Source: Eledone cirrhosa (lineage: Eukaryota). Taken from it: a DNA stretch of 64,000 nt. The stretch is taken from contig OZ024751.1 of assembly GCA_964016885.1 (NCBI GenBank), forward strand, positions 6,572,001 to 6,636,000, given 5' to 3'. A program made the translations under genes and the position numbers. Under the pieces are notes generated by a model, which ran no database searches, was not told the DNA's origin, and saw only the letters and a program-made list of their open reading frames with translations. This document shows, piece after piece, positions 355 through 64,000 of the stretch. Positions within the stretch are counted from its first letter, which is position 1. The number at the start of each line of letters is the position of its first letter.

Positions 355-612
355 ACTTGTGTATAATGGTAGCTATGGTGCTTCCATAGGCAGTAACCCA
401 AAATTAGCACTCGATATTCATCAGAGTAGAGTGTAGATAGTATACAGAAAATGAAAAATCAGTGATGCATCTTGACTCAATTTATTGCGTGTTACAATTA
501 TTTCGCCGGCAGGTAGCTCGAGACATGGTCCTTGTATGGATCTGGCTGATTCTACGGCTGCAGGTTCCTTCAGACACGGGTAGTTCGTTCGGAGCAAATT
601 GTATCACTCTTG
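355..612 (-). mobile_element. PLE/retrozyme-like terminal fragment, family B
   Basis: Homologous to 28670-28924; contains an HHR and the TATCGAGTGC motif; 3' end abuts (TA)n at 355. Confidence 0.75.
488..578 (-). ncRNA. Type I hammerhead ribozyme, long stem II (family B)
   Basis: Minus strand: CGTGT-CTGAAGGA-[61 nt, GCAG..GTAG/CTAC.CTGC helix]-GAAA-TAATTG-TA^ACACG. Stem I CGTGT/ACACG is perfect; the core has one extra nucleotide. Confidence 0.7.
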
Positions 613-664
613 TTTATATGTTTATATATATATATAGAGATATAAACATAGTGTCTGCATTTCT

Positions 665-791
665 GTTTCTATGCAAATACAAGAGCAATAATGGCGGGGT
701 CATTCTACTGACATGAATTAAAACGAGGCTGTTTACATAATTGAAAACGAATCGAATATTATTAATATTCGGGAAACTCAGATTACATTTA
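665..791. repeat. Dispersed TA-flanked repeat family I (also 10160-10282, 17445-17594)
   Basis: Three copies share CAAGAGCAA.AATG..GGG.TCATTCTACTGA.ATG...ACGAATCGAAT.TTATTAATATTCG..AA.T.AGATTACA. Confidence 0.75.
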
Positions 792-2028
792 TATATATAT
801 ATAAGTGTGTGTGTGTGTAAAGTGAAAGGGAGAGATAGAGAGAGAAAGAACCAGATATATTAATAGAGAGAGAGAAAAATTGACAGCTTAATTTCAGTTC
901 AGTTCGAATGTTTTATTTCAAATCGAACATCATATTGCATATATACTGCGCTTCATTGCGAGACGTTCAGGTACTGTGTATATCATCATTTAATTGGGAA
1001 TTATGTTTGCTGGGCTAAACTTACTCTACATTTTCTGTTTCTCTTTGTTAGGGAACTATTATTGAAGAATGTAGAAATCGGAATTAACCGTGCACTGAAT
1101 GTATAGAAATTATATCTGAATGATCGATTCATTCAAAATATACATGTTGTATTTAGATTAGGTAGTGCATCATGGATAAATACCCATATGTTACAGCCAA
1201 AGTCGGAAGACGAAGAATGAGCAATGCAATCACCCGACAAAAGAACCCAAGGAAAGAAATTTCTTTCAATATGTGGAATCATTTTCTACTATAAGAAAAC
1301 GGCCAATTCATAAAAGGTGAAATCAATTGAATCATTAAGTAAAATAAGTGTATGAACTCATCTACCTCAGAACTATTGATTACTAAAGTTGACATCTGAC
1401 TTTAACAAATGAAGTCAGCGTAAATATCAATACGGAAAAAGATATTGAAAATTCGCTTTCAAATGTAACGAGGATATTGAATGTAATATGGCAATGTAAA
1501 GAGAATTTATCCATGCATGCATATACTCTTCATTTAACTACATTCTTTGTGTTCTACGAAATATAAGGTTTAAATAAAGAAGAGCGAGATCCTAGCATAA
1601 CGTTTGATTTTACCGATTGAATGTTAACTGGAATTAACTGAGAATTACTCATTGTTTGAAGGAGAAATACCAAGCCAGGAAATAGAATTCTATGAACATA
1701 TGGAAATTCGAATATAACCCAATAAATAAACTTTCATATACATTTACACCATAAATATAAAAATTACTACATAGTATTCGAAGCAATATTACATATACAT
1801 ACACGACGTTCAGCTAACTATAGTTAATAGTTTAGAAAATCTGCCTGATGAAAAGTGTGTGTATGTGAGGTATGTGCGGGGATGTATGTGTGTATATGTG
1901 TTGATGTAATATATATATATATATATATATATATATATATATATATATATATATATATATATATATATATATATATATAAAATAAAGTTAAATAAAAGTC
2001 AAATGATTAAAATTTAGCTTCGTTTATT

Positions 2029-2083
2029 ACTGCTATATATATTTCGGTGACAGCCATCTTTGGCTGTGACCTCTTCAGGCAGT
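2029..2083 (-). ncRNA. Type I hammerhead ribozyme, intact core (family Q)
   Basis: Minus strand: ACTGC-CTGAAGA-GG TC ACAGCCA AAGA TGGCTGT CA CC-GAAA-TATATA-TA^GCAGT. Stem I is perfect and stem III palindromic; paralog at 35882-35937. Confidence 0.85.
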
Positions 2084-2399
2084 TTGAATTAGTATGGTAT
2101 AGACAAGTACATATGGTATACAACCAACATAAACTCAAAATCTCTATATATATATATATGTATATACATGCATATATATATATATATATATATATATATA
2201 TATATATATATATATATATATATATATATATATATATATATATTTATATATGTATATGTGTGTGGGATGGAGTGTGAGTGTTAATGGTGTGCAAGTGTTT
2301 ATGTATAATTTAAGAATGGTTTTCAAAAGAGGGATGGGAAGAAAGTACTGCTAAATATAGATTACATTAGTAGAGATGAAACATCACTTTCATATGGAA

Positions 2400-2700
2400 C
2401 TAACGTCTACAAGACTAGAACTGTTTAATTCGTTTGAAATCATCAGGAATTTGTGAATAGGTTGGATAAGTCTGGTATTTCTTGAGTCCTTTTCAGTAGA
2501 GAAAGGGTAGAACAGACCGGAGTAGATGCAAAAAGAGGGGGATGATGGAAAATAAGAAAAAAAGGTGGAAGAGGAAGAATTAAAATGTGAGGTAGAAGTG
2601 GTGGGGAATGTGGGTGATGGAATTTAAGAAATGTTTATTTCGGTCAGAATTTTGTGCTAGATGGTCTGATGGTAAGAACGTGCAAACGGAAAATATATGC
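2400..2700 (-). mobile_element. PLE-like 3' fragment, family C, with decayed HHR-like motif (about 2412-2450)
   Basis: Minus strand CTGATGA-TTTC AAAC GAAT-TAAA-CAGTTCTAGTC, matching family C copies at 13343, 19645 and 52087. Confidence 0.55.
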
Positions 2701-2721
2701 ATATATATATATATATATATA

Positions 2722-60526: not shown

Positions 60527-61378
60527 TAGGTATTAGGATTGGTGCTCTGAAATAGCGATGCATACATGCATGTATGTACAATATATTTGGCAATAAACCG
60601 TATTTAATTAAAAACATTTTGAAGACCTTGCGCAATCATTTTTACCGAAAATCATAGAGGCTGGATTCTTATAGAATTCCAGTAATAATCAGGAACTGAT
60701 TATACAGAGCGATTGCCGGTCCAGTAAATATTAGGTATTAGGAGTGGTGCTCTGAAATAGCGATGTATGTATGAATGTATGTATAGTCTATTTGGCAATG
60801 TACCGTATGTTTACTTAAAAACATGTTGAAGACCTTGCTCTATCATTTTTAAAGTAGTGACTATGTCACTTACTTCTTTTTTTTTACAAAAGAAGGGAGA
60901 GAAGCTGACAGAGTCTGTTTTACAAATCTTAGAAGCTGGATTCTTATAGAATTCCAGTAATAATCAAGGAGATGATTATACAGAGCGTTTGCCGGTCCAG
61001 TAAAAATTAGGTATTAGGATCGGTGCTCTGAAATAGCGATGTATGCATGAATGTATGTATATTAATTAAACATACGTTATATTGCCAAATAAACTATACA
61101 TCGCTATTTCAGAGCACAAATCCTAATACCTAATATTTGCTGGACCGACAATCGCTCTGTATAATCAGTTCCTGATTATTACTGGAATTCTATAAAAATC
61201 CAACTTCTATGATTTTCGGCAAAGGCAAAGCGTGAAACAGATTCTGTCAGCTTCTCTCCCTTCTTTTGCCGAAAAAAAAGAAGTAAATGACATAGTCACT
61301 ACTTTAAAAATGATAGCGCAAGGTCTTCAAAATGTGTTTAATTAAACATACAGTATATTGCCAAATATATTATACATA
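60527..61378. mobile_element. Tandem plus inverted non-coding repeat, family L (about 280-300 bp unit), retrozyme-like
   Basis: Units start at 60527, 60732 and 61008; 61062-61378 is inverted; HHR-like 3' half at 61234-61252; TA on both sides; small fragment at 48359-48384. Confidence 0.8.
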
Positions 61379-61379
61379 T

Positions 61380-62155
61380 ATTCATATATATATATATATA
61401 TATATATATATATATATATATATATATATATATATATATACATATATATATATATATATATATTTATATATATATATATATATATTTATATATATATATA
61501 TATATATATTTATATATATATATATATATATTTATATATATATATATATATATTTATATATATATATATATATATATTTATATATATATATATATATATT
61601 TATATATATATATATATTTATATATATATATATATATATTTATATATATATATATATTTATATATATATATATATTTATATATATATATATATTTATATA
61701 TATATATATATATATTTATATATATATATATATTTATATATATATATATATTTATATATAGATATATATATATTTATATATATATATATTTATATATATA
61801 TATATATATATATATATTTATATATATATATATTTATATATATATATATATTTATATATATATATATATATATATATATATATATTTATATATATATATA
61901 TATATATATTTATATATATATATATATTTATATATATATATATTTATATATATATATTTATATATATATTTATATATATATATATATATATATTTATATA
62001 TATATTTATATATTTATATATTTATATATTTATATATATATATATTTATATATATATATATTTATATATATATATATATATATATATATTTATATATATA
62101 TATATATATTTATATATATATATATATATATTTATATATATATATATATATATAT
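61380..62155. repeat. About 775-bp (TA)n tract with irregular TTT interruptions
   Basis: Seen directly; the longest of many (TA)n, (CA)n and (GA)n tracts in the window. Confidence 0.97.
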
Positions 62156-62191
62156 TATTATTATGTAATAAACAACATAAGGCAATTATTC

Positions 62192-62245
62192 CATTTACCA
62201 GTGGTTTCTTAAAAGCAAAAGGTTTTGCTTTCAATCCTCAGAATG
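62192..62245 (-). ncRNA. Type I HHR, intact core (family N)
   Basis: CATT-CTGAGGA-TTGAAAGCAAAA CC TTTTGCTTTTAA-GAAA-CCACTGG-TA^AATG. Confidence 0.8.
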
Positions 62246-63438
62246 AAAAATCCTGGTTTGTTTATTGAATATGGATTCTAAAAACAAAAATGCAATCTAT
62301 ATGAAAGTGAGGCTGGAAAAGGGAGTAGGAAAGGAAAAATAAAATAAAACTACACATCCAAACACACACAAAAAAAACACAAAAGCATACTTACACACAC
62401 ATACATATATACACATATATAAATATACGCATACACATATACATATACACATATATATATATATATATAAAGAGCGTACACCTACACACACATACACATA
62501 TATACACACGTATATACACATACATACATTCATACATACACACACACACACACACACACACACACATACACACACACACACATACACACACACATATATA
62601 TACATGTACATATATACATACATATATATATATATATATATATATATATACACATATACACACACACACATGTGTGTGTACAAGCATACACATACACACA
62701 CACATATATATACACACATACATACATTCACACAAACATACAACGTACATACATACACATACATGAATGCACTCCACTACATATTCACACACGCAAATAA
62801 ATATAAGAAAAAAATATATAAATATATATTAACAAATTTTTGACAGCGATACATGCCCCAGCTAACAGGACAGACACGCGTGGTAAGTAATACACACAAA
62901 AGCACATATACATACGTACGAAATAGAGATGCTGTCCTCATCTGAAATCGCATCTGATCTGTAATTGGATTGACACTCCTACGATAAATCAACCGCCTTG
63001 AACTCCTTCTCTGCTCTTTACTTTTGCTACGGTTTTTATTTTGCTGATTCTACCTTCTGTACTCTTGTATATTTAAAAATTTTTTTCTCCCTTACCTCCC
63101 CTTATATTTTTATCTCCTCTTACCCCCCCCCCCATATATTCTTTTTGTTTTGCCCTTCACATACCTATGTGTATGTGTATGTATTTTTGTGTGTATATAT
63201 ATATATGTGTATGTATGTATATATGTACGTATATGTTTGTGTATATATATATATATATATATATATATATATGTATGTATATATATATATATATATATAT
63301 ATATATATATATATATATATATATATATGTATATATATATATATATATATGTGTGTGTGTGCGTGTCTGTATGTGTGTATATAATTGTATATTTGTGTGT
63401 GTATATGTATGTGTATGTGGATAAACCAGGCCTTTTTT

Positions 63439-63492
63439 CATTCTGAAGATTGAAGGAAACTTTTTTTGTTTTTAAGAAACCTCTGGTGAATG
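63439..63492 (+). ncRNA. Type I HHR, decayed (family N; GUG site)
   Basis: CATT-CTGAAGA-[weakened stem II]-GAAA-CCTCTGG-TG AATG. Confidence 0.6.
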
Positions 63493-64000
63493 GATTAATT
63501 GCCTTGTATGGCTTTATTACTTTACTACTATATATACGTTTATGTAAGGTTCATTTGTCTTATCTAATACTGAGCTTTACACATACACACATGTATATGT
63601 GTGTGTGTGTATGTGCATGTGTGTATGTGTACGTGTATGTGTGTATATATATGTTTATATATATATATGTATATATATATATGTGTATGTATATGTATAT
63701 ATGTATATGTATAGATGTGTATATGTATGTGTATGTATGTATATGTGTGCGTGTGTATTTATTTATTTTTATGTATATGTGGGTTTGTGTGTGGGTGTGT
63801 GTGTGTATGTGTGTGTGTTTGTATTTAGTTGTGCGTTCTTTTGATATATACGTATTTGCATGTGTATAATTGTTTAGCTATGTATGTATATGTGTGTTTA
63901 CGTATTTATATGTGTGTGTGCGTTTATATTTTATGTTTTTGATGTATATATATATATATATATATATATATATATATATATGTGTGTGTGTGTGTATATA

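Follow-up and report, generated by a model that had tools for sequence, protein, structure and literature searches.

The stretch of Eledone cirrhosa DNA analysed here (the window: 64,000 nucleotides, positions 6,572,001 to 6,636,000 of the forward strand of contig OZ024751.1, assembly GCA_964016885.1) is AT-rich and holds 205 tracts of (TA)≥4. Among these tracts lie coding remnants of Penelope-like elements (PLEs), with a PLE-type reverse transcriptase (RT) and a GIY-YIG endonuclease (EN), and about 10 families of short 3′ ends, the pseudo-long-terminal-repeats (pLTRs), that carry predicted hammerhead ribozymes (HHRs). The short ends are often arranged head to head as inverted pairs, with a tail of 50–170 nt on one of the two copies, and the outer 3′ ends of such pairs sit on (TA)n. 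The recurring unit is TA-tail-inverted pLTR-pLTR-TA, with two alternative 3′ termini per family; three of the elements (P1a, P1b and P6) join RT/GIY-YIG coding remnants. Partial tandems or pLTRs with an inverted 5′-truncated copy and an optional tail were found for P1, P4, P5, P6, P7, P8, P10 and P14. The families were rebuilt as P1–P15 from masked self-BLAST and alignments, as the letters (A1 to Q) used in the initial annotation of this DNA carry no coordinates.

Judged by their sequence, P1a, P1b and P6 are EN+ PLEs: tblastn aligned them to full-length RT-EN relatives with E-values of 1e-44 to 1e-120. P1a (18063–19590, + strand; coding stretch 18061–19246) is a 5′-truncated element with TA on both sides that comprises the RT, an internally deleted EN, a 3′ untranslated region (UTR) and an HHR (19400–19442) with a G5A change. 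A near-perfect palindrome (19025–19105) stands in place of part of its EN. The P1b unit (10303–12702) reads TA-tail-pLTR(−)-EN/RT(−)-inverted EN(+)-pLTR(+)-TA, with the coding stretch at 10903–11976 (−), the inverted EN piece at 11972–12157, and decayed HHRs near 10570 (−) and 12466 (+). A predicted Octopus vulgaris protein, P0151, is 58–68% identical to P1a and P1b (61% to the RT at 11251–11964) and has an RT followed by a CX4CxxC linker and the beginning of a C-terminal GIY-YIG EN. P0151 has the full linker; the window copies have it in partly decayed form, with Cys/His residues at 10837–11211. Neptune elements are recognized by a CX2-5CxxC linker and a CCHH motif in the C-terminal GIY-YIG EN (Craig et al., 2021, PMC8557442). 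By these criteria P1a and P1b would be Neptune-type (possibly Nematis), the linker motif being what separates the two here. They share with Neptune-type elements the RT, the linker, a GIY-YIG EN with two internal cysteines and downstream histidines, a minimal HHR, an inverted pLTR with tail and a microsatellite bias, and all copies in the window are broken.

P6 belongs to a different clade. Its coding copy (32268–34216, −) consists of a truncated EN (33816–34208) that ends in a stop, a 3′ UTR with a decayed HHR (33635–33680), and a broken RT whose open reading frame (ORF) has its own start near 33421. Full-length relatives place residue 1 at 33421, and the EN, which breaks off before the linker, matches their C-terminus. 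At the position of the RWK motif the RT reads LRW-stop, and it contains SDKT. The Hydra clade is characterized by RWK, by DKG changed to DKT, and by a C-terminal EN with a CxCX5C linker and no CCHH (PMC8557442). The 32268–34208 element is thus, on its sequence features, a Hydra-clade partial tandem in which the EN belongs to the upstream tandem copy. It looks EN-first, and this probably prompted the label Naiad in the initial annotation. Naiads likewise have (TA)n targets and tails and occur in Octopus, and are described as having an N-terminal EN and RT in one ORF, a DKA motif and no canonical HHR. We rejected the Naiad reading because a stop, a UTR and an HHR intervene between EN and RT start and because the RT carries DKT; no Naiad was found in the window. 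A second Hydra-clade GIY-YIG EN remnant, absent from the initial annotation, lies at 27056–27550 (−; frame 27062–27529). It retains a CxCX5C linker, is 32% identical to the P6 EN, and has relatives, retrieved by a HMMER search with the 27062–27529 EN, that carry this EN C-terminally. When the P6 RT fragment was used as query in a word-index search of proteins, 304 candidates were obtained, none of them significant.

Two short forms are tied to coding elements, as the initial annotation had proposed. A solo inverted P1a pLTR pair with tail lies between TA tracts at 36015–36497 and bears a canonical HHR (36224–36266, −); in self-BLAST it matches coding P1a at 92% (19333–19581 versus 36333–36082). 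The P6 short form (6963–7098, −), which is fused to TA and is the 3′ end of the Hydra-clade element, matches the latter at 81% (6955–7089 versus 33540–33671).

The remaining families are represented by short copies. P2 is found as a pLTR end (1980–2144, −), whose canonical HHR (2029–2083; z −3.1) has a palindromic minimal stem III, and as a second copy (35852–35945, −) with a canonical HHR at 35882–35937. The P3 copy at 62156–62262 (−) holds the canonical HHR with the best scan score (62189–62248; Hydra-style stem III), and the one at 63420–63528 (+) has a G at the cleavage position. P4 occurs as an inverted pair between TA tracts (2723–3006; tail copy −, short copy +; HHR 2899–2964, +, with U4C), as a copy at 27673–27790 (−; HHR with G8U), and as an inverted unit with TA on both sides that is split by a repeat resembling a short interspersed element (SINE; 30953–31388). 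Since the core changes differ among its three copies, the consensus HHR of P4 is canonical. P5 comprises a decayed copy away from TA (2363–2451, −), an inverted pair (13050–13237) with a separate copy (13345–13411, −) in the interval 13050–13411, a tailed copy with TA on both sides (19647–19772, +), and a tailed inverted pair, likewise doubly flanked (52088–52271), with a canonical-core HHR at 52205–52257 (+). Two families are degenerate. P7 (inverted pair at 16867–17012 with a degenerate Hydra-style HHR and its core at 16929; tailed copy at 32120–32279, +; short 3′ end at TA, 40793–40845, −; tailed inverted pair with TA on both sides at 54820–55030, core at 54964) has U4A in all three copies that retain the core. 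P14, whose 5′ HHR core is broken (remnant at 61202–61252), forms retrozyme-like tandem non-coding units of about 280 nt (about two on the − and one on the + strand) between TA arrays at 60529–61383, and a short fragment between TA tracts at 48343–48385 (+).

These motifs are predicted type I hammerheads, with the conserved core and helices I–III in type I order. The first descriptor scan, which required the core and all three helices at a score of at least 11, gave nine matches in the 64-kb window; 12 block-wise dinucleotide shuffles averaged 0.67. A revised descriptor that admits a long domain II, a one-nucleotide core insertion and covariation of the 3-8 pair returned 13 folds at the same score against 0.26 per shuffle (maximum 2; 100 shuffles), and six long-domain matches against 0.2 per shuffle, a contrast that is optimistic because the descriptor was widened after the data had been inspected. 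Two isolated matches, 47529 (−; one of the 13) and 51215 (−; first scan), were set aside as probable chance hits, and loose scans yield many chance matches at low scores. In one copy or across copies, the type I fold is recognizable in 10 families (P1 with its two subfamilies, P2, P3, P4, P5, P6, P8, P9, P10 and P13). An intact core with pairing stems within a single copy is preserved in six copies from only five families (P1a, P2, P3, P5 and P13). In the P5 alignment, helix II is invariant and its 4-nt loop variable, and 88% of the cells pair, compared with at most 52% when the alignment is slid. The claim of at least 10 HHR-bearing families in this DNA is thereby borne out by these 10 plus the two degenerate ones, most copies being decayed. 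Their reading as PLE pLTR hammerheads is supported as well.

Four of the families (P8, P9, P10 and P13) have 59–84 nt between the two halves of the HHR core (domain II). P8 is present as a tailed pLTR with TA on both sides (356–622, −; HHR 488–578, with an 8-nt left core, a 61-nt domain II and an HHR-shaped fold 0.2 kcal/mol above the minimum free energy, MFE) and as a tailed inverted pair (28456–28925; HHR 28701–28791, +), so that two independent insertions support its long domain. P9 and P13 are each represented by a single full copy: the P9 unit with its inverted upstream copy (53666–54763) contains an HHR at 53878–53988 (−; A9U, 82-nt domain II), and the P13 pLTR ending at TA (6690–6950, +) an HHR at 6697–6807 with an intact core and an 84-nt domain II. 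Only the 3′ half of the HHR remains in a partial P9 pLTR that ends at TA and lies head-to-head with the second EN remnant (27537–27631, +), and in a truncated P13 copy (5985–6153, +). P10 is a tandem pLTR pair between TA arrays (59340–60276, +; tail copy, then short copy), and both copies of this one tandem carry an HHR (59523–59612 and 60113–60202) with a U3-A8 core pair and a 59-nt domain II. For P8, P9 and P10, an HHR-compatible fold lies 0.2–3.8 kcal/mol from the MFE and the rod is closed next to the core; for P13 such a fold lies 5.2 kcal/mol above the MFE and the proposed helix II is absent from the constrained fold. A 5-nt shortened core common to P8 and P9 had been considered and was dropped, the true left core lying 60–80 nt farther upstream. 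Upstream of the P9 UTR, a decayed frame (54100–54400, +) may, by eye, resemble the C-terminus of a PLE GIY-YIG EN; it has no tblastn support.

The initial annotation also claimed that nearly all of these families have their 3′ end fused to (TA)n. Among hand-anchored ends, a distance of at most 10 bp to (TA)≥4 is seen for 20 of 22 from P1–P6 (background 2.5%), and one of at most 25 bp for 32 of the 38 ends of HHR type (background 5.2%), counts that are partly circular because some anchors were set by eye. The test was for this reason rerun automatically with 14 realigned copy pairs and neutralized TA tracts; the P2 pair, which has a (TA)4 inside its motif, was for that reason left out. In the automatic test 15 of 23 distinct homology ends fell within 25 bp of TA (background 5%), and five of the eight misses are copies that run on into a tail or a tandem junction. 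Nine copies of a SINE-like family served as a control, with one 3′ end and no 5′ end within 25 bp of TA. A test that is free of boundaries points the same way: the first TA downstream of an HHR is a median of 133 nt away, against 509 nt for the background (P about 0.006, n = 13). Counted per unit, 33 of 39 3′ ends are at TA, and 25 of 29 insertion units have at least one 3′ end there, which supports (TA)n as the preferred landing site; TA flanks 14 of 30 units on both sides. Target site duplications are not readable inside TA tracts. Where a copy has a tail, the short terminus usually coincides with a TA-like motif inside the element, in sequence that is itself AT-rich, and microhomology may act there at priming. 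One TA tract each is common to P13 and P6 (6951–6962) and to P9 and P4 (27632–27672), arranged tail-to-tail, the pattern to be expected if a single tract is hit by insertions more than once.

Taken together, we consider it probable (roughly 85%) that the window is a graveyard of EN+ PLEs of Neptune-type and Hydra clades whose HHR-bearing 3′ ends were placed on pre-existing (TA)n targets; the initial annotation is thus partly confirmed in its observation and partly supported in its interpretation. In the scheme suggested by published PLE work, the GIY-YIG EN would nick a pre-existing TA tract, and the RT would prime on the nick (target-primed reverse transcription), starting inside the pLTR RNA at the short-end or the tail-end site. 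Early truncation or inversion would then leave mostly pLTR-only inserts. The TA tracts would be targets that are sometimes split, and no products of the elements; splitting, by which insertion might multiply tracts, seems plausible for the 14 units that have TA on both sides. As for the minimal type I HHR, its most likely role is the processing of tandem transcripts, either as a dimer or assisted by protein, and it would have no part in the choice of target. In vitro, the Poseidon protein of Anolis is reported to nick AT-rich DNA and its RT to start at two sites within the RNA, which mark the limits of the tail, while Poseidon HHR cleavage is protein-assisted and dispensable for insertion; cleavage by minimal HHRs is weak and involves dimers (Cervera and de la Pena, 2014, PMC4209133). 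Tails and inverted copies are standard for PLEs, both the TA bias and the use of two RT start sites have been published, the TA association is interpreted as targeting, and the Cys-rich linker is hypothesized to guide microsatellite targeting (further background: PMC11167929, PMC13282606, PMC6765202, PMC3846280).

Several results weigh against this interpretation. Pfam gave no GIY-YIG match and only a weak RVT_1 match for the PLE remnants. Seven HHR families have no coding partner (the orphans, as named, are P2–P5, P7–P10 and P13; the partner search was confined to the window), and the PLE origin of the seven is therefore argued from motif and architecture. Covariation in P5, the one family examined, is not above shuffles (one compensatory pair; 169 of 500 shuffles as high), and most single HHR folds are no more stable than shuffles, with z ≤ −2 in only three of 15 folded motifs. 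Rfam returned no hammerhead and only miRNA-like hairpin noise in two scans and the best 150 of 248 rows of a third, a silence that is unsurprising for minimal PLE motifs and yet counts as a negative. As to the targets, upstream distances from HHR to TA are also short (median 192 nt); only six of 18 5′ junctions are at TA, though this is enriched over the 5% background (P = 2e-4). Both 3′ ends of long interspersed elements (LINEs) of RTE-like type adjoin TA as well (36646 and 42106), so that TA affinity is not specific to PLEs in the window.

A different view is that many of the short families resemble retrozymes: non-autonomous elements, in the form of small circles or tandems with an HHR, that PLE proteins mobilize in trans. 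Animal retrozymes are 150–450-bp tandems with type I HHRs that have been argued to be non-autonomous PLE derivatives, and the non-LTR retrozymes among them are small non-coding tandem units (PMC7229834; bioRxiv 10.64898/2026.07.22.740005). The tandem P14 units fit this description, and perhaps so does P10, a tandem pair with a variant core. The P14 core is broken, however, most families consist of tailed ends, either solo or inverted, which is the signature of coding PLEs, and the short forms of P1a and P6 were shown to be ends of coding elements. Unlike non-LTR retrozymes, no unit has two consecutive intact canonical HHRs, the U3-A8 pair of P10 excepted. We regard trans-mobilized retrozymes as an unlikely account of the short families; the term retrozyme, applied in the initial annotation, suits P14 at most.

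Alternatively, the elements themselves might make or lengthen TA tracts, by slippage or by telomerase-like addition from a TA-like end, so that PLE activity generates microsatellites. The TA-like motif at the short terminus of tailed copies would fit such a process, as would the far greater frequency of TA at 3′ ends (33/39) than at 5′ ends (6/18). TA nonetheless lies on both sides of 14 of 30 units and is enriched at 5′ junctions, arrays next to PLE ends are no longer than others (median 34 versus 28 bp, P = 0.21), 41 of 83 TA arrays touch no identified element (36 touch PLE-derived DNA), and the published interpretation is targeting; we hold a generative role of the elements to be distinctly improbable. 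That abundant, fragile TA tracts passively collect or delimit every kind of repeat and that HHR-like motifs were over-read is scarcely credible: the 205 tracts, the RTE-like LINE ends at TA, the low-score chance matches and the post hoc descriptor speak for it, yet the end-to-TA tests and the revised HHR scan already contradict it, few SINE ends are at TA (3′ 1/9, 5′ 0/9; background 5%), and high-scoring HHRs are far above shuffles and recur in sense orientation shortly upstream of family ends.

Targeting of (TA)n by EN+ PLEs agrees with what is known of related elements. A (TA)n preference and a canonical HHR are published for Hydra-1_Obim of Octopus bimaculoides, (TA)n targeting for nearly all Hydra families, and tails and inverted pLTRs for such TA-targeted, HHR-bearing elements (Craig et al., 2021, PMC8557442). 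Shared with Hydra-clade PLEs are the C-terminal GIY-YIG EN, RWK and DKT, the CxCX5C linker, a type I HHR near the 3′ end and the (TA)n preference. By eye, the P6 RT resembles that of Hydra-1_Obim, and the stem architecture of P3, P5, P6 and P13 matches the published Hydra HHR table; the published 3′ end of Hydra-1_Obim matches, again by eye, no family of the window, which has two further Hydra families. Short motifs of P1, P5, P8, P11, P12 and P13 found no match in the supplement of Craig et al. (one strand searched; line breaks may hide matches). With the minimal PLE hammerheads (PMC4209133) the window motifs share the type I fold, a short palindromic helix III, an extra base after position 9 and many families per genome, and the U3-A8 core swap of P10 is also seen in Cercyon PLEs of Schistosoma. 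The long domain II sets four window families apart: helix II of minimal PLE hammerheads has 6–8 bp (PMC4209133), domain II is short in the Hydra table, and the table of Craig et al. includes an HHR of a plant PLE whose loop II has 35 nt (PMC8557442). In the literature searched we found no animal-PLE HHR with such a long domain II; Lunse et al. (RNA Biol 14:1499), who treat PLE variants, lie outside its coverage and may describe them. For such variants and for octopus HHRs, the searches gave nothing more specific than Craig et al. (PMC8557442).

As HHR-bearing PLEs in (TA)n, Octopus included, have already been published, the window adds families and no mechanism: the families are new, the TA-targeting PLE clades to which they belong are known, and the ribozyme variant is a modest one. 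New are the local density of families and the four unrelated families with a domain II of 59–84 nt, one of them (P10) with the U3-A8 core swap, and these long-domain-II hammerheads are what a ribozyme specialist might not expect. Descriptors for short-loop HHRs would miss them. We tentatively raise, with the odds somewhat against it, the broader possibility that cephalopods harbour a large, unannotated radiation of TA-targeting PLEs in which P8, P9, P10 and P13, being unrelated, independently acquired a 60–85-nt rod and are still selected as ribozymes that are invisible to Rfam; for P10, selection would follow from the U-A swap, as it keeps the 3-8 core pair. In that case, current figures for the HHRs and the PLE content of octopus would be far too low, and the long domain II might serve as a putative binding site for the PLE protein that licenses cleavage.

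Of the 54,621 non-simple bases of the window, 11.1% belong to coding PLEs, 9.7% to HHR families and 2.4% to degenerate HHR families, together 23%; this is a floor, because single-copy PLE ends with dead motifs escape detection, and it rises to 29% if TA-abutting families without an HHR (6.1%) are added. SINE-like repeats account for 2.8%, LINEs for 14.8%, and 53% have no class assigned. The view that much of the apparently unique DNA consists of PLE or retrozyme ends therefore holds for about 23% of these bases and is overstated in view of the 53% and the 41 of 83 TA arrays that touch no element. For annotation, PLE debris makes up about a quarter of the non-simple DNA here, much of it as 50–300-bp ends that readily pass for unknown repeats or SINEs. 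A 2026 annotation of O. vulgaris counts 31 Penelope-like families with recent activity and 893 SINE families that are likewise recently active and have no class, and the word ribozyme is absent from its main text; PLE ends may overlap with these 893 families.

Three further families, P11, P12 and P15, abut TA and have tail-like structure and were nevertheless excluded from the HHR family count. P11 (28943–30920) is a complex tandem and inverted repeat that has a tail-like structure and whose two termini at TA differ from each other; it has half a core (30904/30210), the lone left core lying 10 nt from one end behind a short hairpin, and no right core was found. P12 is present in three copies of PLE-like architecture (658–789, 10159–10280 and 17459–17640), of which two lie between TA tracts and one has an extension resembling a tail, and P15 (52354–53590, 72–143) as a tandem pair of about 580 bp between TA arrays, the first copy with a tail-like extension. 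The scan detected no HHR motif in P12 or P15.

The SINE-like control family consists of nine copies of 130–190 bp with an ATT-type tail (7098, 14860, 20558, 20720, 31059, 40877, 42830, 44690 and 52456), of which 31059 lies inside P4 and 52456 inside P15. The copies are probably SINEs; ARAGORN found no tRNA. A LINE at 21500–26617 (+), presumably of an L1/Tx1-like clade, has matches to APE, RT and zf-RVT and an (ATT)n tail, and is directly followed by the 5′ end of a related element (26660–27055, +) with a similar hairpin and start context that abuts the second Hydra-clade EN remnant. Two LINE remnants with RVT_1 matches (36645–38365, −, and 41137–42106, +), which we take to be RTE-like, have 3′ ends that adjoin (TA)n and 5′ breaks 40 and 0 bp from TA.

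Among the other repeats, long inverted arms surround (TA)23 at 55049–55215 in the manner of a miniature inverted-repeat transposable element, with a further arm at 54764–54786. Besides the one in P1a, isolated near-perfect palindromes are located at 8236–8347, 42435–42470, 48082–48221 and 48293–48326. An element that starts directly after a TA/CA tract (34360–35290) contains internal direct repeats (34851–34928 and 35158–35235) and may resemble Helentron-associated repeats. Between the 3′ ends of P14 and P3, a 790-bp higher-order TA array (61366–62155) shows an extra T at regular intervals with a period of 16–22.

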